Source of the DNA: a virus
Length of the DNA stretch: 64,000 nucleotides
IMG/VR virus record: IMGVR_UViG_3300025121_000776
Coordinates: 64,001 to 128,000 of that record
Direction: 5' to 3' (one strand)
Made by a program: the position numbers and the translations under genes. Below are positions 8,738-40,332 of this stretch, one piece after another. Every line of letters begins with the position of its first letter. Position 1 is the stretch's first letter. The notes below the pieces were generated by a model that worked only from the letters and a program-made list of their open reading frames with translations, was not told where the DNA came from and searched no databases.

Positions 8738-8896
8738 TATGACATAACTTCATTAGATTAATGGTAAAATATTTGTTTATAATAGAAATACGACTATTTT
8801 TATGAGATGAAACGGCTTTAATATTTTTAAATTTATTAAATTATACGAAAAATATATAAAAAAGTTGCAGTTATTCATAATATCGTTTTTTTTTAA

Positions 8897-10102: not shown

Positions 10103-11002
10103 ATGGTAAAATTTGGAGATAGGGGAGCGGAAGTTTCGGAAGTACAAAAGCTGTTATCATTATTAGGTTATGATTTAATAGTTGATAATACTTTTGGAAA
10201 TAAAACTCTTAGGTCGATTAAAGCCTTTCAAAAAAAATACGGACTACTTCAAGATGGAGTTGTTGGAGATAAAACTTTAACAGCATTAAAAGCTGCACAA
10301 AAAAGAACCGCAAAAGAAGATGTTGTTTCAGTGACTCCTGTAGATTATGGCGACTTAGAAATAAGCACTGAATATATAATGCCCGATAATCAATATATAA
10401 AACAAGTTACACCTAAAAGTCAAATTTTCATCCACTTTACAGCAGGTGGTCCAAGTGCAAAAAACACAATTAACTATTGGGAAGGAGATGAAACAAGAGT
10501 CGCAACATCATTTGTAGTAGACGGTAATTCTGGAATAGCATATGAAGCTTATAATCCAGATTATTGGGGGTTTCATTTGGGAATTAAAGGAACAAATGGA
10601 AAACTTGATAAAGCCTCTGTTGGCATAGAGATATGTGCTTATGGCCCTTTGATTAAAAAAGGAGATGAATATTTTGCTTGGCCAAACAACTACACGACAA
10701 AAGTTTCCTCAGAGAATGTTTATACATTAGATGTGCCATTTAGGGGATATAAATATTATTATAAATATACCGACAAACAACTTGAAAATTTGGAACATCT
10801 TTTATTGTTTTTAGTTAAAAAATACAACATAAAAGTTCAAGACAATTTTAACGCATCATGGTTGGACTACAATCAAGAGCTTATTGATAAATGTTTGCCT
10901 GGAATATGGTCTCACACAAATGTAAGAAAAGATAAATTTGATTCATATCCAGACGAGAGATTGTTTGAAATACTTAATAAAATTTCTAAAGAAGTAAATT
11001 AA
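10103..11002 (+). CDS. N-acetylmuramoyl-L-alanine amidase with peptidoglycan-binding domain (endolysin-like)
   Basis: PG_binding_1 motifs (DNTFGNKT, DGVVGDKT); amidase_2 motifs IHFTAG, SVGIE, WSH...KFDSYP. Confidence 0.9.
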   Translation: MVKFGDRGAEVSEVQKLLSLLGYDLIVDNTFGNKTLRSIKAFQKKYGLLQDGVVGDKTLTALKAAQKRTAKEDVVSVTPVDYGDLEISTEYIMPDNQYIKQVTPKSQIFIHFTAGGPSAKNTINYWEGDETRVATSFVVDGNSGIAYEAYNPDYWGFHLGIKGTNGKLDKASVGIEICAYGPLIKKGDEYFAWPNNYTTKVSSENVYTLDVPFRGYKYYYKYTDKQLENLEHLLLFLVKKYNIKVQDNFNASWLDYNQELIDKCLPGIWSHTNVRKDKFDSYPDERLFEILNKISKEVN

Positions 11003-29701: not shown

Positions 29702-30967
29702 ATGAAACAATTTATTGAATTAATTACAACCATCCTCAAAGATGGTAGAGTAAATACAGACCGCACTGGAGTGGGCACAGTATCTACATTTGGACATCAA
29801 TCTGTATTCTATATGAAAGATGGGTTTCCTTTGCTAACATTAAAAAAAACGTTTTACAAAGGAATTATTCATGAGCTTCTTTGGTTTCTTAATGCGGTGC
29901 CAGAAGAATATAAAAAGTTTGGCAACACAAACATTAAATATTTGGTTGATAATAACGTTCATATTTGGGATGAGTGGGCGTATGTAAAATACAAAAAACA
30001 CACAAGTACCATAGAAGAGCCAGATATGTCAGTTCTTATAGATGACCCTCAACGAAATAATAGCGTTAGAGAAATGACTCAAAAAGAATTTGCAGATGCA
30101 ATTAAAAACGATGATGAATTTGCTATGAAATGGGGAGACCTTGGTCCAGTTTACGGAAAACAATGGACTGATTGGGGTGGCTACACTAAAAAATATCAAG
30201 AACAAAGAAGTTATGGTGGAAGCTTTGGTGGCGAAACAAGCATTGTTTATGGCGATTGGAAAGAAGAAAAAATCCCAGGCATTAATCAAATTGATGTTCT
30301 TATTAATACTCTAAAAAATAGGCCAGACGATAGGGGAATTATGGTTTCAGCATGGGATGTAGCAGAATTGGGAAAAATGGCACTTAGGCCTTGCCATACC
30401 ATATTCCAATTTAAAGCAGAGCCACTTACCATTGATGAAAGAATAGATTTATTTATAAAAGATGGTGGTGACGTATTGGATTTGGGAATTGGGGGGAATG
30501 ACGAACAAGTAAGTTCCATTTTAACAACATTGGAAATCCCCAAATTTAGGCTTTCTTTACAGCTTTATCAACGCAGCGCAGATACTTTTTTAGGCGTAAG
30601 TTATAATATTGCAGGGTATTCTTTACTTTTGCATATGGTTGCTCAAATTGTCAATATGGTGCCATATAAGTTTGTTCATACCTTTGGAGACTTACACTTA
30701 TATCTTAATCATAAAGACCAGGTAAATGAGTTATTAAACAGAACTTATAACGAAGGGGAAGGAATAGACCCCAAAGATGAAATAGATTACTGGGATAACA
30801 TTAGAGAAACTTTATCAGATAATTGTGTGGGACATTATCGTGGACCAGAACTTCCAACATTAAAATTAAATCCAGCTATAAAAAATATTTCTGATTTTAG
30901 AATTGAAGATATAGAAGTTTTAAATTATAATCCACTACCAGCAATAAGTGCACCAGTAGCAGTATAG
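29702..30967 (+). CDS. thyA: thymidylate synthase with insertions
   Basis: DRTGVGT, ELLWFL, LGPVYG, PCH, YQRSAD, GDLHLY. Confidence 0.96.
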   Translation: MKQFIELITTILKDGRVNTDRTGVGTVSTFGHQSVFYMKDGFPLLTLKKTFYKGIIHELLWFLNAVPEEYKKFGNTNIKYLVDNNVHIWDEWAYVKYKKHTSTIEEPDMSVLIDDPQRNNSVREMTQKEFADAIKNDDEFAMKWGDLGPVYGKQWTDWGGYTKKYQEQRSYGGSFGGETSIVYGDWKEEKIPGINQIDVLINTLKNRPDDRGIMVSAWDVAELGKMALRPCHTIFQFKAEPLTIDERIDLFIKDGGDVLDLGIGGNDEQVSSILTTLEIPKFRLSLQLYQRSADTFLGVSYNIAGYSLLLHMVAQIVNMVPYKFVHTFGDLHLYLNHKDQVNELLNRTYNEGEGIDPKDEIDYWDNIRETLSDNCVGHYRGPELPTLKLNPAIKNISDFRIEDIEVLNYNPLPAISAPVAV

Positions 30968-30980
30968 CAAAAGAATAAAA

Positions 30981-31004
30981 AAAAGCCAGGCAATCCTGGC
31001 TTTT
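30981..31004. terminator. bidirectional terminator
   Basis: AAAAGCCAGG / CCTGGCTTTT between convergent genes. Confidence 0.85.
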
Positions 31005-31008
31005 GTTT

Positions 31009-31386
31009 TTATTGTGGGGGTTTATTCTTATCTGAATTTGTTATTGTTGAGTTTGGTCTTATCCCCGAAGTTCTATCAAGAATCACTTTAACGTCTCCCT
31101 TTATTTCTTCTATTTGTTTTATGAATTGTTCATCTTTTATCTGGAAAGAGCCAAGTTTTTCATCCAATTTTTCTTCTACTGTTTGAATAAATTCACTTTT
31201 ATCTTTTTCCATTTGCGATTTATAATCACTAACATCCGCCTTAACATCAAAATATGCAAGTGTAAAAGCAGAAGAAAATAATGTTATTAAGCCACCAACA
31301 ACCCATATAGCAACTTTTACTGATAATGTGATTTTAGTGTTTTCACCAATTGTTTGTACTCCAACCTTTGCTTCAATATCTCCCAT
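31009..31386 (-). CDS. single-TM coiled-coil protein (holin/spanin-like)
   Basis: TM segment followed by a coiled coil; late motif upstream. Confidence 0.5.
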   Translation of the reverse strand: MGDIEAKVGVQTIGENTKITLSVKVAIWVVGGLITLFSSAFTLAYFDVKADVSDYKSQMEKDKSEFIQTVEEKLDEKLGSFQIKDEQFIKQIEEIKGDVKVILDRTSGIRPNSTITNSDKNKPPQ

Positions 31387-31418: not shown

Positions 31419-31913
31419 CTAATAAACCACGGAATTTTGCCAAGTTATCAAAATAATGTCATCTGAATTTAAAGATTGAAACATTATTACGAGGTTAACT
31501 CCATCAAAGCTACCGCTTTTAGGGTTAATTAAAAAATATTCTAAATATTTAACATTTTGTAAAACTCCTAAAATATTTGACTTAGAAATGCTAACTCCTT
31601 TCAAATATGTTCCTGCTAAATATCCATAAGAATTATAACTATTACTATAAAAATATACATAATAAGTATATAATCCATTAATTGCATAAGTTGTTCTCAT
31701 TACTTTCGTGTAAAAACATGGGCAGCCAGCGCAAACAGTGCCAAACATTCCCCAATCATAAACTCTTCCGTTTTTATCAACCAATATTTGATACATATTT
31801 GCTTCCGTATTATATCCAGCATCTGATTTATAAGAATAATACTGATTGTGATTTTGAGCTACTCCAAGCAGCCATGTTATTGATAATACAAGTAATAATA
31901 CAAATGTTTTCAT
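31419..31913 (-). CDS. secreted hypothetical protein
   Basis: Signal-peptide-like N-terminus. Confidence 0.65.
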   Translation of the reverse strand: MKTFVLLLVLSITWLLGVAQNHNQYYSYKSDAGYNTEANMYQILVDKNGRVYDWGMFGTVCAGCPCFYTKVMRTTYAINGLYTYYVYFYSNSYNSYGYLAGTYLKGVSISKSNILGVLQNVKYLEYFLINPKSGSFDGVNLVIMFQSLNSDDIILITWQNSVVY

Positions 31914-31915
31914 AA

Positions 31916-33670
31916 TTATAGGTCATAAATTATTTCAAATCCAAAATTCATTGCAAAGTCTTTAATCATAATTCCAGCCTTAGCATTGGCTTCATCTTCT
32001 ATCCATCCTCCTATAGTTTGAATTGTTTCACCCATATCAAAACTTTTTACTTCTCTCTGCCTGTTATGAGTTAATTCGTGGCCAATACTTCTTAAAATGT
32101 CAACTAAAGCCCTGCCTGTGCATCTTATGTGATTAGAGTTTTCGCCTGGAACATATGAAGCTGTTGTCATTATGTATTCGTCTCTGCCCTTATGAAGATA
32201 AATTGACACTGGCTCTTCTATTCCCAATCTATTGCAAACAAAATTTATAAAACTTTTTATTATTTCAACCTTTTCTGGGGTCATTCCTTCAATACCATCT
32301 TCAACACCTAAAATATTTTCTTGCTTATCTCCATTTAATTTAAATTTAAGTTTTTTGTTTGGAGGGTAAGAATAAGAAAAAGTATCACTCTCAAAAACAG
32401 CACGTTTTTTTAAATCTTTTATGTATTTTTTCCCAGTTCCTGGTTTCACATATGCAATTGTCATATGTGGATGATATTCTGGATGGTCATTTTTATAGGG
32501 AAAATTTTCTCTTAAAACACTATTTAACTCATTTAAATCTGGGGAATCAACATCAAATTTTAAAACATCATAATCTTTATTTTCAAATAAAGATATGTTA
32601 TTTAATTTAACTTTTAATTTTTCTTTGTTCTGTAATAATTTTTTTGTTGTTTCCTCAACTTCTTCTGGAGAAACTTTATTGGGAATAAATCCAAATAATG
32701 CTGTAATATGTGGTTTATCTTCTAATCCATATCCAATAGCATCATAAATATCCTTTTGTTCAATTATACCAGTAATTTTATCCCATCCTTTTATATTTAA
32801 ATCTAGCATTAAGCAGCCAAACTCTTTTTTAAATTCTTCTTTTCCTTCTATAATTACTTTTCTTTTATTTTCAACCGATTCAGCCACTTGTTCTTTTTCT
32901 GCTAAAGATAAAGAAGAATCAAAAGCGGCTTTTTTAATATTGGAAAGTTTTTCAAGATAATCAGCTTTTCTAATAACTTTAAAAGCAAGATTTTCTACAG
33001 AGTATTCTCCTCCTTGTTCTAAACCAGAATTTCTAAGTTTTTTTAGCTTATCTTTTATTTTTTCAGCTTTAGCTAAAAGTTCCTTTTCATCATTAATTTG
33101 TTCCAAACTATCAATATCATTCATTATTGTAGCTGCCTTTTCTTTAATTGCAACTTCATCAATATCTTTTGTGTATTTTTCTGGCTTTTGAACCCATTCG
33201 TTTTTTAAAACACTATAAACGCCTTTTGAAGAAAACAAAGTTTCTTCATCTTTTGCAAATAATTCTACTTCAAAGCCTTTTATTTTGATATCATGTTCAT
33301 CATTCCACAAGGATTTCTTTGCGACAATATATTCTTGAAGGAATTCCATTGGCTCATTCATTGATTCTAAATCAAGAATTAAGTGAATATCAATATCACT
33401 CATCAAAGTCCAGTTGTAATTAGCTAAGCTTCCAGTAAAAATTACATCTTTTAATTTACAGTTTAATTTTAAATATTCTTTAAAAGCCTTAGCAATTTTT
33501 AATATCGTAAGTCTTGCATCTTTTTTTAATTTCTCTCCATCCCAAATTTCAGCGTTTAAAGTGTCTTTTGGCTCATTTACTTGCACATCAATATCGCTGG
33601 GGGAAATAATCTCTTCAAGAAAACTAAAACTTCTAGTTAAAATATATGGATTTTTTTTCTTTGACTTCAT
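31916..33670 (-). CDS. nucleotidyltransferase - 2H phosphoesterase (Acb1-like) - HExxH domain fusion
   Basis: GSLANY...SDIDIH...VELF (pol-beta NTase); PHITAL and PHMTIAY (two HxT motifs); SIGHELTH. Confidence 0.8.
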   Translation of the reverse strand: MKSKKKNPYILTRSFSFLEEIISPSDIDVQVNEPKDTLNAEIWDGEKLKKDARLTILKIAKAFKEYLKLNCKLKDVIFTGSLANYNWTLMSDIDIHLILDLESMNEPMEFLQEYIVAKKSLWNDEHDIKIKGFEVELFAKDEETLFSSKGVYSVLKNEWVQKPEKYTKDIDEVAIKEKAATIMNDIDSLEQINDEKELLAKAEKIKDKLKKLRNSGLEQGGEYSVENLAFKVIRKADYLEKLSNIKKAAFDSSLSLAEKEQVAESVENKRKVIIEGKEEFKKEFGCLMLDLNIKGWDKITGIIEQKDIYDAIGYGLEDKPHITALFGFIPNKVSPEEVEETTKKLLQNKEKLKVKLNNISLFENKDYDVLKFDVDSPDLNELNSVLRENFPYKNDHPEYHPHMTIAYVKPGTGKKYIKDLKKRAVFESDTFSYSYPPNKKLKFKLNGDKQENILGVEDGIEGMTPEKVEIIKSFINFVCNRLGIEEPVSIYLHKGRDEYIMTTASYVPGENSNHIRCTGRALVDILRSIGHELTHNRQREVKSFDMGETIQTIGGWIEDEANAKAGIMIKDFAMNFGFEIIYDL

Positions 33671-33694
33671 TAAATAACTATTTTCAATAAATAG

Positions 33695-34150
33695 TTATAA
33701 ATTATGAATTTTAAAAAACTCTGCAACTTCTGTTTTTTTAAAACTATAAAGCTTAGTCATACTGCCTTTGTCGCCAGCCAAATTAAATATTTTTGGTTTT
33801 AAATAATCAATCATACATTTTAACTTATGTGTTTCTATATTCCATATTTCGTTAAAATGTAAAAAATAAGTTGTAAAATAATCTGCTTCTGTAACTGCAA
33901 TTCCAGATGACTTTCCTCTACACTCAAATTCTACAACTATATTACCAGTGTTGATTGGATAAATATCAGTTTTAATTTCATATGTTTTTATACAACTCTT
34001 AAATGACATTTTTAAATCATATCTATAATCGTAATTTTTTTCAATGAAAGCATATCCTTTTTGTATCATGAAGTTTTTAACAATATCTTCGCCCCTTTCT
34101 CCTGTTATAACATCTTTTTTAAAATCATATTTTCCTTTTATTATTTTCAT
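33695..34150 (-). CDS. PD-(D/E)XK nuclease family protein
   Basis: GERGE...YDL...YEIKTD; TAAATTTG promoter at 34155-34162 (minus). Confidence 0.75.
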   Translation of the reverse strand: MKIIKGKYDFKKDVITGERGEDIVKNFMIQKGYAFIEKNYDYRYDLKMSFKSCIKTYEIKTDIYPINTGNIVVEFECRGKSSGIAVTEADYFTTYFLHFNEIWNIETHKLKCMIDYLKPKIFNLAGDKGSMTKLYSFKKTEVAEFFKIHNL

Positions 34151-34290: not shown

Positions 34291-34722
34291 TTACCTATTA
34301 TCGTCTTTTGGTATATTATATGAATATAAATTTTGCCATCTACCTTTTTGGTCTTCTTTTACAATATTTTTTTCTTCTGAAATAATATCAAATAGTTCTG
34401 GATTAATTAAAGGATTTCTTAAATCCATTTTCTTATTAACCTTTTTCATTTCTTCTGCAAGGATTTTAATTTTCTCTGGAGAAAAAGATTCACCTATAGA
34501 TAATGTCTCTGGAACTTTAGGTTCTTTTTCAAGTTTTGGAGCTTCTGGAAGTTTATTTACATTGCCTTTTGTTGAATTGGGTTTAGTAAATTTAGGTAGT
34601 TCTGGAACCTTTAAGGTTTTTTTCTTTTCATCCAACACCTCTGCTCTAGATAAATCTTCGTTTTCAGAAAGATATTTCTTGGCACTTTTAATTACAAATT
34701 CTTTAAATTCTTTCTTATCCAT
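34291..34722 (-). CDS. putative virion protein
   Basis: FKEFVIKSAKKYLSE N-terminus; late motif at 34746. Confidence 0.5.
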   Translation of the reverse strand: MDKKEFKEFVIKSAKKYLSENEDLSRAEVLDEKKKTLKVPELPKFTKPNSTKGNVNKLPEAPKLEKEPKVPETLSIGESFSPEKIKILAEEMKKVNKKMDLRNPLINPELFDIISEEKNIVKEDQKGRWQNLYSYNIPKDDNR

Positions 34723-34869
34723 AAGAAAATTTTGTTAAGTTTTTATATAAATATAATAAAAAAATGAAATCCTATTCTCTAGCACTTGGAATTCAATAAT
34801 TATTGCATAATAGTAAAACTTTTTTTATTTTTTTTCGTATAATAGTATAGAAACAAAAATAGAAAGACA

Positions 34870-34947
34870 ATGACAACTAATAGAAAAAACTATTTTGAAG
34901 AACTCATAGATGCTATTGCTATTTTAATACAAGAAAAAAAAGAATAA
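34870..34947 (+). CDS. 25-aa small ORF
   Basis: ATG downstream of TTCGTATAAT (34834). Confidence 0.35.
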   Translation: MTTNRKNYFEELIDAIAILIQEKKE

Positions 34948-34952
34948 AACCC

Positions 34953-35315
34953 TTATTTCATAGGGTTTTTATCACTTATATCAGCAAAAATTAATGCAAT
35001 TAATTGCTGTAAAAAGCTTTGCCTTTTCAGTAATTTTTTATATTCTATTATGATTGCATCTACCAAAGATTCTATGTTGGGATTATGTACTCTTTGGGGG
35101 GCTGATTTTATATCATTAATTATGCTTATAAATTCAGCCACGTCTGTGTTTCTTCCCCATTTTATCCAAAAGTGAATTCCGCCAGATAAAACAATATGGA
35201 CATAGGTTATTTGTTTATTTTCATCTCGGTCAATACTAATGTTTTTTAAAGAAACTTTTTTTTCTTTAAACACCTGTTTATAAGCATTTAATATGTTACT
35301 ATTTAACTCTTTCAT
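34953..35315 (-). CDS. hypothetical protein
   Basis: ORF. Confidence 0.7.
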   Translation of the reverse strand: MKELNSNILNAYKQVFKEKKVSLKNISIDRDENKQITYVHIVLSGGIHFWIKWGRNTDVAEFISIINDIKSAPQRVHNPNIESLVDAIIIEYKKLLKRQSFLQQLIALIFADISDKNPMK

Positions 35316-35316
35316 A

Positions 35317-36708
35317 TTATTTGCTAATAAATATCATTTTTTTTATTTCTTCCGCATCACCAGAATCAATTATAGGCTTAACTCTATCTGGATTTTTAAA
35401 GAATTCCTTTTCAATTCTAGCGATAGCTATGCCTAATTCTCTATCTTTATATCCCAAAGTTTTTAATAGTTCTGATGGTTGAATAAATTCATCTGCAAGT
35501 CTTAATAAGTTTTTTATTTTAACCTTATCAATGTGATTTAAGTTTGCAAATTTATCCATTACTTCTTCAGTCATTGGATATGGTTTTTCAGATATTACAG
35601 GTTTTGCGTTTTTTACCTTTTGCGAGTAAAATTTTTTAATCTCAGAAGCATTATCTTCATTTAAACTTATTAAGCTAACAAGAAAAGCAAAGCAGTTAAC
35701 TTCATCAGAACTATATTTTTTCAAATTAAGTTCAGTACCTATGTTTTTAATATTGTTACGTCTTAATAAATTAGCGGTCATAGCAATTGGATGTCTTTCT
35801 TCTGCAAAAGCACTTAAATCAACACTTAAATTAGTTCCAAATATGTGTTTAAAGAAATCAAAATCCTGTAATAAAGAAAGGAAATGAACTACACTTTTTG
35901 CATTTTTTATACCTTTGTAGTATTCATCTCTTATTCTTTCATCTGAAACTTTTTTACCAATTGGGTCAACCAATGATGTGCCACCAGCTCTAATTGCAGC
36001 AGCAACATTATTTGGAATTTCCGAACCCATTACTGCGGCAAATCTCACGGCACGAATCTTTCGAAGGGGGTCTTCTGCAAATCTGTCTTCTGGGTTTCCA
36101 ACAGTGTTAATTGAGTTCGTTTTTAAATCATTAACCCCTCCCACTAGGTCATGAACTATTCCAATGAATCCCTTATCATTAACTCCAGTTATTTCATAGT
36201 ATAATGCATTGATAGTCAAATCTCTCCTTTGAGAATCTTTTTCAATTGTTTTTTCATACTGAACAGAATCTGGTTTTCTTCCTCCGCCAGAATCACTACG
36301 TAGTGTAGCCAACTCATATTGATTATGAGATTTTGTAACAAGAAATTGGATAGCAAAAGATTCTCCAATATTTAAAATGTTTGAAATAAAATCTGCACCA
36401 GAAAACATTTTTTTAATTTCATCTGGAGTCGCATCTGTAACTAAATCAAAGTCTTTTGGAACAACCAAAGTTTCATTCATGGGATTTTTTGATAATTTTA
36501 TTGAGTTTCTAACAGTATCTCGGACTGCACCTCCAATAATCCACATTTTAAACCCATTTTTGTTGAGCGTGTATTTTATTTTTGAAATATCATTTTTATC
36601 AGATTCTTTTACAGGCATTTCGAGAGCAAAAGTTTTTGCTCCATCAGCTTCTTGTAAGAATTTTTCTAACAATATTTTTTTCACCTTTTTTCTTATTTCT
36701 TTTTCCAT
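35317..36708 (-). CDS. CCA-adding enzyme / poly(A) polymerase family nucleotidyltransferase
   Basis: GGAVRD, DFDLVT, RRDLTINA, EDPLRKIRAVRF. Confidence 0.92.
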   Translation of the reverse strand: MEKEIRKKVKKILLEKFLQEADGAKTFALEMPVKESDKNDISKIKYTLNKNGFKMWIIGGAVRDTVRNSIKLSKNPMNETLVVPKDFDLVTDATPDEIKKMFSGADFISNILNIGESFAIQFLVTKSHNQYELATLRSDSGGGRKPDSVQYEKTIEKDSQRRDLTINALYYEITGVNDKGFIGIVHDLVGGVNDLKTNSINTVGNPEDRFAEDPLRKIRAVRFAAVMGSEIPNNVAAAIRAGGTSLVDPIGKKVSDERIRDEYYKGIKNAKSVVHFLSLLQDFDFFKHIFGTNLSVDLSAFAEERHPIAMTANLLRRNNIKNIGTELNLKKYSSDEVNCFAFLVSLISLNEDNASEIKKFYSQKVKNAKPVISEKPYPMTEEVMDKFANLNHIDKVKIKNLLRLADEFIQPSELLKTLGYKDRELGIAIARIEKEFFKNPDRVKPIIDSGDAEEIKKMIFISK

Positions 36709-36834: not shown

Positions 36835-37206
36835 ATGACTAATTACGGAAAAGAATTGATTTTAGACTTACACAACTGCGATGTAAGAATGTTTAATCGA
36901 AAATATTTGAAGCAGTATTTCAAAGCACTATGCAATGAAATAGATATGCAAAGATGCAAACTTTGTTGGTGGGATGATTTACATACACCTGAAGCAGAAA
37001 AACAGACTTTGTCACACACAAAAGGAACATCGGCAGTTCAATTTATCCTTACAAGTAATATCACTATTCATACACTTGAATTGACAAAAACTGTTTATGT
37101 GAATATATTTAGCTGCAAAGATTTTGATTCTCATAAAGCTGAATTACTAACAAAAGAACATTTCAAAGGCGAAGTGAAACAATCATTAACAATAGATAGA
37201 ATTTAA
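36835..37206 (+). CDS. speD: S-adenosylmethionine decarboxylase proenzyme
   Basis: GKELILDL...GTSAVQFILTSNITIHT...YVNIFSC. Confidence 0.8.
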   Translation: MTNYGKELILDLHNCDVRMFNRKYLKQYFKALCNEIDMQRCKLCWWDDLHTPEAEKQTLSHTKGTSAVQFILTSNITIHTLELTKTVYVNIFSCKDFDSHKAELLTKEHFKGEVKQSLTIDRI

Positions 37207-37222
37207 TGATTATCTTTGCAGA

Positions 37223-37810
37223 ATGAAAAAGTCTGGTATTTATAAAATAGAATCAAAAATCAAATCTAACAAATGCTACGTAGGTAGTGCTGTTTGTATT
37301 AGCAATAGATGGTATATCCATTTAAGACTTCTAAGGTTAAATAAACATCCTAATCGAAAACTTCAAAGTCATTTTAATAAATACAGTGAATCTGATTTGC
37401 AATTTTCAATCCTTTTAAGCTGTGAAAGAGAAGATTTAATAAAAAATGAGCAATATTATATTGATTTATACAAACCGTTTTTTAATAATTGTAAAAAAGC
37501 GGGGAGTCAGTTGGGAATAAAAAGAACATCTGAATTTAAAAATAAATTAAGAGGTAGGCATATTTCAGAAGAAACACGAAGAAAATTAAGCGAATTAGGT
37601 AAAGGGAGAATTTTTTCAGAAGAAACACGAGATAAAATGAGTAAGGCAAAAATTGGCAATAAAAATGTTGCAGGTAGTAAGCGTTCAAATGAAACAAATG
37701 ATAAGCATAGAAAAGTTATGACAGGGAAAACTCATTCAGAAGAAACAAAAGCAAAGATGCGTAAAAGCAAACTTGGAAATAAAAACGCAACAAAAAACAA
37801 AGAAAAATAA
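37223..37810 (+). CDS. free-standing GIY-YIG homing endonuclease with NUMOD3 repeats
   Basis: GIYKI...YVGSA...R...H; repeated (H)SEETRxK; own TATCTTTG promoter at 37211. Confidence 0.9.
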   Translation: MKKSGIYKIESKIKSNKCYVGSAVCISNRWYIHLRLLRLNKHPNRKLQSHFNKYSESDLQFSILLSCEREDLIKNEQYYIDLYKPFFNNCKKAGSQLGIKRTSEFKNKLRGRHISEETRRKLSELGKGRIFSEETRDKMSKAKIGNKNVAGSKRSNETNDKHRKVMTGKTHSEETKAKMRKSKLGNKNATKNKEK

Positions 37811-37812
37811 TT

Positions 37813-38817
37813 ATGAACGTAGTTTTAATAGTGCCTACTGGAATAGGTGCAGAAATAGGCGGACACGCAGGAGATGCAAACCCTGCTGCTAAATTACTTG
37901 CTTCCTGTTGTGATAAACTAATTACACATCCAAATGTAGTAAACGCATCAGATATAAACGAGCAAACTTATAATACTTTGTATGTTGAAGGAAGTATCCT
38001 TGACAGATTTTTGAGAGGTGAAATATATTTGAAAGAAGTATTTTACAACAAAATTCTATTGGTTGTAAATAGTCCTATAAACAATGATACGATAAACGCA
38101 GTTAATGCTGCAAGGACCACAATTGGAGCGGACATTAAAATAGTTGAACTTGAAACTCCATTGGAAATGATGGGATTTTATAAAAATGGAAAAGCTGATG
38201 GCAAAGTAACAGGATGTTTGGAATTAGTTGAACAAATCAAAGATTACGACTTTGCCGCCTTGGCAATTCAAACCAACATACAAGTTGAACGAGAAACAAA
38301 ATTACATTATTTAAAAAATGGTGGGGTAAATCCGTGGGGCGGAATCGAAGCAATTACATCAAAATTAATTGCCGACAAACTTGATAAACCCGTTGCTCAT
38401 TCTCCTTTTGTTGATTGGCAAAACGGACAGGATGACTTAGCAGATTTTAATGAAGTTGTTGACCCCAGAATGAGTGCTGAAATGGTATCACTTTGTTATT
38501 TGCATTGCATTTTAAAAGGATTACATAAAGCGCCAAAAATTGATTACGAAAAAGGACTATCAGTTGATGACGTTGATTTTCTAATAACTCCAATAAATTG
38601 TGTTGGCGAGCCTCATTACGCCTGCATGAATGCTGGAATACCAATTATAGCTGTAAAAGAAAATAAAACTATTTTAAATGATAAAATGCCCGATAATTTT
38701 ATTATAGTAGATAATTATATTGAGGCAGCTGGATTACTTATGGCCTACAAGGCAGGAATAAGCTCACATTCGGTAAGGCGACCAATTCTTAACAATTTTA
38801 ATAAAAACTTAATATAA
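37813..38817 (+). CDS. DUF3326 family protein
   Basis: IVPTGIGAEIGGHAGDA, THPNVVNA, NPWGGIEA, PVAHSP. Confidence 0.8.
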   Translation: MNVVLIVPTGIGAEIGGHAGDANPAAKLLASCCDKLITHPNVVNASDINEQTYNTLYVEGSILDRFLRGEIYLKEVFYNKILLVVNSPINNDTINAVNAARTTIGADIKIVELETPLEMMGFYKNGKADGKVTGCLELVEQIKDYDFAALAIQTNIQVERETKLHYLKNGGVNPWGGIEAITSKLIADKLDKPVAHSPFVDWQNGQDDLADFNEVVDPRMSAEMVSLCYLHCILKGLHKAPKIDYEKGLSVDDVDFLITPINCVGEPHYACMNAGIPIIAVKENKTILNDKMPDNFIIVDNYIEAAGLLMAYKAGISSHSVRRPILNNFNKNLI

Positions 38818-39132: not shown

Positions 39133-40332
39133 ATGAGAACAAAATCTTTGGAACCAGTAAATAAAAATTCAATTCTTTGGGCGGATTTATATAAGTTTAC
39201 AATGTGTTGGGCAATTATTAAATTTTTCCCCGAAGCAAAAGTGAGATATGAATTTATTGACCGAAACGATACGGTTTATCCAGATGAATTTGCAGTTGAG
39301 TTAAGAAAAATAGTAAATAACTATAGTCAAAAAAGATTATCTAAACAGCGTAAGGTTGAGTTTGCGAAAGCATGTCCATTCTTGCCAGCTGCTTTTTTTG
39401 ATTTTCTCGAAGGCTACATATATGACCCAAGTGAGGTCGGAATTATTCAAACAGGTGGAAAATTATCAATTCAAATTGCTGGATACTGGTACAGAACTGT
39501 TATGTGGGAAACTACACTAATGGAAGATATTTCTGAGTTATATTTTAATATGACAGGCCAAAGCGATGATAAAGTAGATATTGAGGGCGCCCTACGAAAA
39601 ACTGCAGATAAAACATCTTTATTTCACTTAAATAGCGCACAAGTTGCTGACTTCGGAACAAGAAGAGCAAAGTCAAAAGATATGCATATAGCAATGATTG
39701 ATGTGATGACAAACTCATTAATGTATAAGAATTTTATTGGCTCAAGCAATGTTGAACTTGCACTATATAATGATATTAAAGTAATTGGAACTTATGCACA
39801 TGAATGGGTTTCTGGAATAGGTGCAATGTTTGGATATGCTCATGCAAATAGAATTGCAATGGAAAAATGGTCAGAAACATATAATGGGAATTTAGGTATT
39901 GCTTTAACTGACACATTTACCACAGATGCTTTCTTGGCAGATTTTGATTCTAAATATGCAAATCTTTTCACTGGAGTAAGACACGACAGTAGTGACCCCT
40001 TCGTTTTTACAGATAAAATTATTGACCACTATAAAAAACTTGGTATTGACCCGACTACAAAAACAATCGTTTATTCTGATGGTTTGAATCCAGAAATGGT
40101 TGTTAAATTACAGGATTACCGTAGGGGTGAAATCAGAAAATCATATGGTATTGGAACTAATTTAACAAATGATATTGATGGAGTTAAACCTTTAAACATT
40201 GTTGTTAAACTTCTTGAAATAAATGGAATGGCATCTGTTAAATTATCTGACTCTCCAACGAAACACGTAGGTGACCCAGAAACAATTAAATTTATTAAAT
40301 GGCAGAATTCTCAAAGATTAATGCAAAAATAA
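39133..40332 (+). CDS. pncB: nicotinate phosphoribosyltransferase
   Basis: DLYKFTM, DFGTRR, GTYAHEW, LTDTF, RHDS, GIGTNLT, KLSDSPTK (E. coli-type PncB pattern). Confidence 0.92.
   Translation: MRTKSLEPVNKNSILWADLYKFTMCWAIIKFFPEAKVRYEFIDRNDTVYPDEFAVELRKIVNNYSQKRLSKQRKVEFAKACPFLPAAFFDFLEGYIYDPSEVGIIQTGGKLSIQIAGYWYRTVMWETTLMEDISELYFNMTGQSDDKVDIEGALRKTADKTSLFHLNSAQVADFGTRRAKSKDMHIAMIDVMTNSLMYKNFIGSSNVELALYNDIKVIGTYAHEWVSGIGAMFGYAHANRIAMEKWSETYNGNLGIALTDTFTTDAFLADFDSKYANLFTGVRHDSSDPFVFTDKIIDHYKKLGIDPTTKTIVYSDGLNPEMVVKLQDYRRGEIRKSYGIGTNLTNDIDGVKPLNIVVKLLEINGMASVKLSDSPTKHVGDPETIKFIKWQNSQRLMQK

Follow-up and report, generated by a model that had tools for sequence, protein, structure and literature searches.

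A phage protein joining an MNT-like nucleotidyltransferase, an Acb1-related 2H phosphoesterase and a predicted zincin: a proposed small polyvalent-type chain with a probable role in counter-defence

What use could a virus have for a single polypeptide that carries a nucleotidyltransferase, a phosphoesterase and a metallopeptidase-like domain? The question is raised by an open reading frame (ORF) at positions 31916–33670 of a 64,000-nucleotide stretch of viral DNA (the window), which is part of the IMG/VR virus record IMGVR_UViG_3300025121_000776 (186,855 bases, estimated to be 57% complete). A sequence-only reading of this DNA had described a Pol-beta-type nucleotidyltransferase (NTase), a 2H domain with two HxT motifs related to the anti-immune enzyme Acb1, and a C-terminal HELTH domain, and had proposed either a processed polyprotein or a pair of enzymes that write and erase a nucleotide signal. 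We compared the protein with Pfam, PHROGs and the PDB, collected 258 relatives in a large protein search, aligned 94 of its relatives and built an AlphaFold2 model of the whole chain on that alignment. Our analysis leads us to propose, with middling confidence, that the ORF encodes a small polyvalent-type phage protein in which an MNT-like NTase is joined to a 2H cassette related to Acb1 and to a hub zincin, and that it most likely serves counter-defence.

The placement of the ORF proved exact (minus strand, 584 aa), and all three domain calls were upheld by re-translation of the motifs, by PHROG and Pfam matches far above chance level and by the presence of three folded domains in the model (Table 1). 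The 13 catalytic positions are kept in all aligned relatives that possess the respective domain, save for one Thr-to-Ile replacement in the first HxT motif. The AlphaFold2 model has a mean predicted local distance difference test score (pLDDT) of 86 and a predicted template modelling score (pTM) of 0.42; this low global score together with three folded domains on a disordered linker suggests an arrangement like beads on a string. Taken together, the alignment and the model show three domains, predicted to fold independently and with intact, conserved active sites, on one chain.

For the central domain, the best Pfam match is PF13563 (2_5_RNA_ligase2), which covers aa 318–413 and, at 54 bits, lies above its cut-off of 27; LigT_PEase (PF02834) is matched with 24.4 bits against a cut-off of 23.3 and covers one half-domain, and PHROGs returned phrog_755, "RNA ligase", as well. 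Among 38 orthologs, 37 match the generic PF13563 model and 36 match the Acb1 family PF23474 at E<1e-3 (best 3.3e-9). Both HxT histidines and T404 are invariant in 38 full-length relatives, and T323 is found in 37 of these 38. Comparison of the model with 18 solved 2H proteins gave VIA Z scores of 10.2–12.9, distributed over drCPDase (12.9), Usb1 (12.4), Pyrococcus LigT (12.0; 11.7–12.0 for the LigT/ThpR structures), Acb1 of phage FBB1 (7t27; 10.8, with 132 of 140 residues aligned) and 2H PDE-9 (10.2), and Foldseek searches of the PDB returned E-values of 2.5e-5 to 1.3e-3 across all subfamilies. The fold comparison was rejected as an arbiter between Acb1 and LigT, since both programs gave ties across the 2H superfamily.

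Sequence comparison is more discriminating, and weakly separates this 2H domain from LigT/ThpR in the direction of Acb1 and 2H PDE-9. Among all 2H proteins of solved structure, sequence searches reach none but those of the Acb1 type: 9q2g with an E-value of 0.005 for the single protein and 5e-4 for the family profile, and 7t26 with an E-value of 0.036. A profile of 46 family members scores 15.4 bits against T4 gp57B (Acb1) and 0.7 bits against E. coli ThpR, and hhalign gives 59% for T4 Acb1 versus 4% for E. coli ThpR. The similarity to Acb1 lies in the block around the second motif, aromatic-x-x-Y-x-P-H-x-T-(I/L)-(A/S)-Y, and both HxT motifs align with the catalytic tetrad of T4 gp57B (H44, T46, H113 and T115) defined in PMC9117128. 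These comparisons place the domain in a clade of phage proteins with kinship to Acb1 and 2H PDE-9, which falls short of proving that it is Acb1 itself. The label "Acb1-like" of the sequence-only reading can be defended at the family level, on the strength of the family profile, its matches to Acb1-type structures and the PF23474 matches of the orthologs; it does not extend to the Pfam cut-off for the protein itself or to the fold, which is tied.

Like Acb1 (T4 gp57B and FBB1; PF23474) and 2H PDE-9 (9Q2G/9Q2Y), the domain combines a compact 2H fold with the HxT/HxT tetrad and an aromatic-x-PHxT(I/L)(A/S)Y block, but it is only ~20% identical to T4 Acb1 and sits between two other domains. Of the Acb1 base-stacking residues Y12, W74, F107 and W147, W74 has the nearly invariant F362 as its counterpart, and F107 is matched by H396, at a position that is F or Y in the majority of relatives. 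Y12 could not be assigned a counterpart, and no C-terminal Trp lid of the W147 type is present. Such a lid is not required, because 2H PDE-9, which, besides cleaving 3'3'-cyclic GMP-AMP (cGAMP), groups with T4 Acb1, uses an N-terminal lid (main text of bioRxiv 10.1101/2025.08.21.671373); by analogy, a lid could here be formed by the linker that precedes the 2H core. Fusion to extra domains, including proteases, is a feature shared with the multi-domain phage 2H phosphodiesterases of Doherty et al. (2025), and according to the main text of bioRxiv 10.1101/2025.08.21.671373, 13 of 75 phage 2H phosphodiesterases are multi-domain and some of them carry proteases. Stand-alone 2H relatives, mostly of 150–310 aa, form 99 clusters; many are encoded on huge contigs (up to 640 kb), and some 2H relatives are fused to GNAT or DUF5661.

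The N-terminal domain (aa 33–256) matches positions 20–247 of the 247-position profile of phrog_36119, a phage family annotated in PHROGs as of unknown function, with an E-value of 2.2e-48. PF01909 scores 17.9 bits on this protein, below the Pfam cut-off of 21, and is matched by 23 of the 38 orthologs at E<1e-3. Modelled alone, the domain reaches a pLDDT of 92 and consists of the Pol-beta core and a four-helix lobe that bears a strongly conserved motif, GGEYSxENLxFKxLR. With VIA, this model is matched best by the minimal NTase 2rff (Z 7.9, root-mean-square deviation (rmsd) 3.5, 101 residues aligned), ahead by a weak margin of FAM46 and CdnE at Z ~6.2–6.5, and the NTase profile also finds 2rff in the PDB (E 0.015). 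Foldseek with the NTase model gave no match at E<=1e-3; its weak matches, namely CdnE (E 1.2e-3), CdnD, CdnC, ANT(6), AAD(9), LinB and FAM46, have template modelling (TM) scores of ~0.2 and rmsd of 13–18 Å. The GS motif and the acidic triad (G80-S81, D92, D94 and E136) are generic to all Pol-beta NTases, the CD-NTases included, and PADLOC returned just two weak matches, PDC-S09 and PDC-M70A, at E about 0.002. An assignment to the CD-NTases was rejected, as VIA, PADLOC and Foldseek lend it no specific support. The GS-x10-DxD spacing and the profile match to 2rff point instead to MNT-type enzymes, and from its sequence and model the domain looks MNT/KNTase-like, with no specific CD-NTase signal. 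It shares the spacing and the third acidic residue with minimal NTases of this type (2rff, HEPN-MNT antitoxins and ANT(4')), but differs from them in its own conserved helical lobe, in having no HEPN partner and in its PF01909 score. The sequence-only reading had advised a structural comparison with Acb1 and CD-NTases; in this comparison the 2H fold ties all subfamilies, and the NTase is nearer to 2rff than to CdnE.

Stand-alone members of the NTase family (225–316 aa, 973 clusters) are found in Lak megaphages, cyanophages (e.g. S-CRM01) and Maribacter phages, and larger proteins, of up to 1306 aa, contain the domain next to DUF5661, Zn_protease (PF05618), CTP_transf_like or DUF192. In three IMG/VR loci (L093, L122 and L124), the NTase resides in proteins of 897–1306 aa with weak cytidylyltransferase-like (NMNAT-type) N-termini, PF05618 Zn_protease or DUF192; a set of NAD salvage genes lies in our window, from position 39133 onwards. 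The genomes of Maribacter phages Molly and Colly and the uncultured LR745206 and LR756504, which have a stand-alone NTase, also encode, at a remote genomic position, a stand-alone 2H protein of the present clade (NTase at 13.6 kb in Molly_1, 2H at 119 kb in the sister isolate Molly_3), and in Lak phages and cyanophages the NTase is present and no 2H match was obtained. The gene that follows the NTase in Molly was considered as a split-off zincin and rejected: it shows no such similarity, and no zincin is encoded anywhere in the Molly genome.

The C-terminal domain escaped sequence searches: no Pfam family is significant for it in this protein, no PHROGs family covers it, and its sequence profile finds nothing significant in the PDB. 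Its fold was identified by VIA, which aligned aa 449–579 of the whole model to zincins, namely YbeY (1oz9; Z 10.0, rmsd 2.8 over 111 residues), the ERAP1 catalytic domain (Z 9.9), lugdulysin (Z 9.6), Wss1 (Z 9.1), SPRTN (Z 7.9) and selecase (Z 7.1). The modelled order of secondary structures is a helix at 465–482, strands at 489–493, 504–507 and 512–516, a helix at 522–540 with H531ExxH535 and a helix at 556–575 with E558. It fits the core of the metallopeptidase (MPTase) of polyvalent proteins, which consists of an N-terminal helix, a 3-stranded sheet, the HExxH helix and the Glu helix (Iyer 2017, PMC5512222). The HExxH motif and the Glu are invariant across the zincin relatives, which give scattered weak Pfam matches to Peptidase_M78, DUF6782, Tox-MPTase3/4, eCIS_core and MPTase-PolyVal. 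The domain resembles minimal zincins such as IrrE/ImmA M78, Wss1/SprT, the minigluzincins and YbeY (fold matches at Z 7–10); it differs from YbeY, which has three His and lacks the Glu of HExxH, in being a gluzincin, and its conserved R, D, Q and EDEANA motifs are its own. As modelled, the domain is shown to be a gluzincin of ~135 aa whose fold and motifs match those of the hub metallopeptidase of phage polyvalent proteins.

The zincin is a promiscuous hub domain. Among representatives at 50% identity it has 937 relatives at E<=1e-3, which occur alone (122–165 aa) or fused to many partners, including SLT, muramidase with PG_binding, M23 peptidase, Zeta/AAA_33 kinases, Fe/Mn superoxide dismutase and PAP2. 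Giant phage proteins of 1547–1614 aa (L033:4878-9719; P0292) combine it with Fe/Mn superoxide dismutase and a Zeta-toxin/AAA_33 kinase, and in further giant phage proteins it stands with a PAP2 phosphatase or with M23, SLT or muramidase domains.

About 75 relatives, with 38–85% identity, have the full three-domain layout. The NTase and the C-terminal zincin occur in the same order in 94 of 94 aligned relatives, and in all of them the zincin spans 123 residues in alignment register with no insertions or deletions, whereas the 2H domain is missing from 23 (392–494 aa). Linker 1 is the site where relatives carry insertions of 5 to 229 aa, be it DUF3008, DUF5661 or other extra residues. These proteins have a constant frame made of the NTase and the zincin, into whose disordered linker the 2H domain fits as an optional cassette. 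The frame itself is no obligatory pair, an idea that had arisen from a first set of loci with neighbouring stand-alone genes which had been chosen through zincin patterns. It was refuted by 80 loci selected through the NTase, 74 of which have no zincin inside 8 kb, four are fusions and two have a zincin nearby; hence, the NTase does not need the zincin. In NTase loci sampled without bias, 79 of 80 have no 2H domain inside 8 kb either.

Of the "xxE-rich linkers" that the sequence-only reading had noted, linker 1 (aa 256–282) is indeed flexible and rich in E and K, with pLDDT <50 at aa 256–278 and 8 E and 6 K in aa 250–283. The second stretch does not qualify: the model shows a short 2H-zincin junction with high confidence, and the conserved beta-strand found there is also present in stand-alone zincins and hence is part of the zincin domain. 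E258 is invariant in 94 of 94 fused relatives and variable in the stand-alone NTases, which end at this point with the natural C-terminus "SLxE" (the E not being invariant there); processing could take place at this residue, or it may simply cap a helix. The pattern [LIV]xE, considered as a possible site for a head protease, occurs 15 times in the protein, three times in linker 1, but the linker itself is E-rich.

The family is restricted to viruses, with nearly all relatives on viral contigs. All related loci retrieved from IMG/VR are viral, three-domain relatives reside on contigs of up to 540 kb (an identical protein is found on a 540,462-base contig), and a search of 185,579 prokaryote species with one genome each gave five matches, all on contigs from metagenome-assembled genomes or single cells. 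No near-identical DNA was found in cultured phages. A search of the ESM Atlas produced viral NTase and IrrE-like leads and nothing else. The Joint Genome Institute annotates the architecture as "2'-5' RNA ligase/predicted nucleotidyltransferase"; our literature search found no description of the NTase-2H-zincin combination, and the main text of bioRxiv 10.1101/2025.08.21.671373 does not mention it.

The closest precedent is provided by the polyvalent proteins described from phages and conjugative elements (Iyer, Burroughs, Anand, de Souza and Aravind 2017, PMC5512222), which unite several unrelated catalytic domains per chain, with a zincin-like HExxH...E metallopeptidase as a hub and with Pol-beta NTases and 2H domains among the listed modules. 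The partners of the present zincin (lysozyme-type, M23, kinases) correspond to the range given for these proteins in PMC5512222, and the idea of a processed polyprotein, put forward in the sequence-only reading, matches by analogy both the published polyvalent concept and the hub behaviour of the zincin. We picture, by way of hypothesis, a chain that may have been assembled from modules freely shuffled by phages and that would serve counter-defence or host take-over. With its HxT/HxT tetrad, the 2H domain could hydrolyse cyclic-oligonucleotide immune signals of the host, such as those of cyclic-oligonucleotide-based anti-phage signalling systems (CBASS) or type III CRISPR, or 2',3'-cyclic phosphate ends. 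The NTase could move a nucleoside monophosphate onto an RNA 3' end or onto a protein, the latter in the way that MNT modifies HEPN toxins, and the zincin could be a protease that cuts its own chain at the disordered E/K-rich linker, or cuts a host protein. In a more detailed version, which we think improbable, the NTase-zincin frame would be a dedicated carrier for interchangeable linker cargo (2H, DUF3008, DUF5661), in which the NTase silences HEPN-type effectors of the host by nucleotidylation in the manner of MNT antitoxins, the 2H domain destroys the cyclic oligoadenylate or cGAMP signals that activate these effectors and heals their 2',3'>P products, and the zincin releases the parts at L-A-E258; the NTase and the 2H domain would then act jointly against both RNases and signals.

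Several observations weigh against the proposal of a counter-defence polyvalent-type protein or set this protein apart from the known polyvalent proteins. With 584 aa and three domains, the protein is much smaller than typical polyvalent proteins and stands at the small end of their range; there is no MuF, portal or ArdC-N context around it, its neighbours being metabolic genes and not virion genes, and its NTase is of the phrog_36119 type with a helical lobe, whereas the polyvalent one is a minimal NTase linked to firmicute ArdC. The zincin does not score as MPTase-PolyVal (PF18818), which gave no match for this protein and matched 2 of 48 relatives with a best E-value of 0.021, and its nearest solved fold is that of the RNase YbeY. 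For the 2H domain of this protein, the Acb1 model PF23474 reaches 22.3 bits, under the Pfam cut-off of 27, and the generic 2H model scores higher. As judged from the model, the fold scores tie LigT, Usb1, CPDase and Acb1, and some structural groups of phage 2H proteins were inactive on all 18 messengers assayed (main text of bioRxiv 10.1101/2025.08.21.671373); the substrate cannot be read from the fold. Cleavage, packaging, activity, substrates, timing and delivery are all matters that we infer.

A role in the repair of RNA ends could account for the generic Pfam and PHROGs matches to 2'-5' RNA ligase/cyclic phosphodiesterase and "RNA ligase" models. The 2H domain would then open 2',3'-cyclic phosphates left by metal-independent RNases of the host (anticodon nucleases, HEPN effectors), and the NTase would extend or tag the healed 3' end alongside the CCA enzyme; a function as RNA-end healers has been proposed in the literature for 2H enzymes of jumbo phages. 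The CCA enzyme in question is a class II CCA-adding/poly(A) polymerase-type protein (PF01743, E 1e-24; phrog_2244, tRNA nucleotidyltransferase) encoded 1.6 kb upstream at 35317–36708 (-), and 10 related loci, with identities as low as 25%, keep a gene of this type on the same strand in the upstream position. This linkage is, however, not specific, because the whole region, ThyA and PncB included, is syntenic among these phages, and the CCA-type gene has its own ATATTTATA motif and terminator, a terminator-like hairpin parting its unit from that of the ORF. Moreover, the family profile favours Acb1 over ThpR, polyvalent-type 2H domains have never been seen associated with RNA ligases (Iyer 2017, PMC5512222), and the zincin has no role in such a scheme, so we consider RNA-end repair possible but doubtful.

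Still less probable, and in our view unlikely, is that the protein acts intact, with the zincin as a targeting, regulatory or effector module that cuts a host protein or is needed for packaging, in the way that the N4 virion RNA polymerase depends on its MPTase region. Stand-alone zincins are common and have nothing to release, the 2H-zincin junction is brief and modelled with confidence, and ArdC, TraC1 and the N4 virion RNA polymerase are transferred without being cleaved although they contain MPTases (Iyer 2017, PMC5512222); on the other hand, the strict conservation of HExxH...E implies catalysis, and in some NTase fusions a PF05618 protease takes the place of the zincin, which points to a requirement for protease activity in cis. 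The writer/eraser pair, in which the NTase would make a nucleotide second messenger like a CD-NTase and the fused 2H domain would degrade that signal or a competing one of the host, is not supported by our analysis. The two lobes of the NTase and the presence of CdnE, CdnD and CdnC among the top Foldseek matches of the NTase (E 1.2e-3 and weaker) would agree with it, but the TM and rmsd values of these matches are poor, VIA gives CdnE a Z score of 6.2 versus 7.9 for 2rff, the motif spacing and the profile match favour the MNT type, PADLOC adds nothing beyond its two weak matches, and the NTase mostly occurs without a 2H domain, all of which makes this explanation very improbable.

If the counter-defence polyvalent-type reading is true, the protein represents a compact and widely conserved example of polyvalent proteins in huge phages (about 75 lineages), in which an Acb1-related eraser of immune signals is physically coupled to an NTase and a protease. 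It would also offer a case of self-processing by a hub zincin, which was proposed in 2017 and has rarely been tested. The analysis further draws attention to two large phage families without a Pfam model of their own, the phrog_36119 NTase (>970 clusters) and the zincin (>900 clusters).

Table 1. Positions of the domains and motifs of the 584-aa protein and of the signals around its gene in the window
Feature	Position	Strand	Basis or remark
Whole ORF: NTase - linker 1 - 2H - zincin, 584 aa	31916..33670	(-)	single ORF, ~75 full-length relatives at 38-85% identity
Pol-beta NTase core and helical lobe, aa 35-255	32906..33568	(-)	phrog_36119, E 2.2e-48
NTase motif G80-S81	33428-33433	(-)	re-translated by coordinate
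NTase motif D92-I-D94 (DxD)	33389-33397	(-)	re-translated by coordinate
NTase third acidic residue E136	33263-33265	(-)	re-translated by coordinate
E258 of the L-A-E tripeptide, end of NTase domain	32897-32899	(-)	alignment
E/K-rich disordered linker 1, aa 256-282	32825..32905	(-)	model pLDDT, linker lengths, composition
2H phosphoesterase domain, aa 283-447	32330..32824	(-)	PF13563, 54 bits; fold; profile
First 2H motif H321-I-T323	32702-32710	(-)	re-translated by coordinate
Second 2H motif H402-M-T404	32459-32467	(-)	re-translated by coordinate
C-terminal minimal gluzincin (predicted), aa 449-584	31919..32326	(-)	zincin fold, HExxH and Glu
Zincin motif H531-E-L-T-H535	32066-32080	(-)	re-translated by coordinate
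Zincin E558	31997-31999	(-)	re-translated by coordinate
Exact ATATTTATA motif heading the five-gene run	34746..34754	(-)	1.08 kb upstream of the ORF
Degenerate motif copy CTATTTATT / CTATTTAT	33687..33694	(-)	17-24 nt before the ORF ATG
Bidirectional terminator-like hairpin closing the five-gene run	30981..31004	.	terminator-like
Hairpin ending the upstream CCA-enzyme unit	34946-34969		terminator-like

The ORF belongs to a run of five genes on the minus strand (34291–34722, 33695–34150, the ORF itself, 31419–31913 and 31009–31386), with no terminator-like site between the exact ATATTTATA motif at its head and the hairpin that closes it, and the ORF is probably co-transcribed with its four small neighbours from this motif. 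The sequence-only reading had the ORF preceded by a late motif; the exact ATATTTATA is not found directly before the ORF but does stand at the head of the operon, and a degenerate copy lies just ahead of the ATG. In the window ATATTTATA occurs 16 times against 4.1 expected, a count reached in 0 of 100 shuffles, with sites e.g. at 8896, 10079, 21083, 27514, 34746 and 36724; many of the copies are located 15–40 nt before start codons, among them that of an endolysin-like amidase (10103–11002), while CTATTTAT by itself is not enriched (10 versus 7.5 expected). We regard ATATTTATA as a candidate phage promoter element, for which the endolysin-like amidase would fit a late role without proving it.

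Between the stop codon of the upstream gene and the ATG of the ORF there is an A/T-rich inverted repeat of 8 bp, AACTATTT / AAATAGTT, with a 5-nt loop (33673–33693, minus strand), which overlaps the degenerate motif. That upstream gene (33695–34150, minus strand), separated from the main ORF by a 24-nt gap and probably co-transcribed with it, encodes a protein of 151 aa that matches only phrog_13596 (unknown function), is conserved in four related loci and displays, by eye, a D...E-x-K pattern reminiscent of PD-(D/E)xK nucleases. ARAGORN detected no tRNA gene in the window. On the plus strand, the thymidylate synthase gene at 29702–30967 encodes an unusually long protein (421 aa) whose Pfam match falls in two stretches over aa 2–350, which suggests large insertions, and at 37223–37810 a gene with GIY-YIG and NUMOD3 domains, similar to those of homing endonucleases, is located between an S-adenosylmethionine-decarboxylase-like gene (36835–37206) and a DUF3326 gene (37813–38817).

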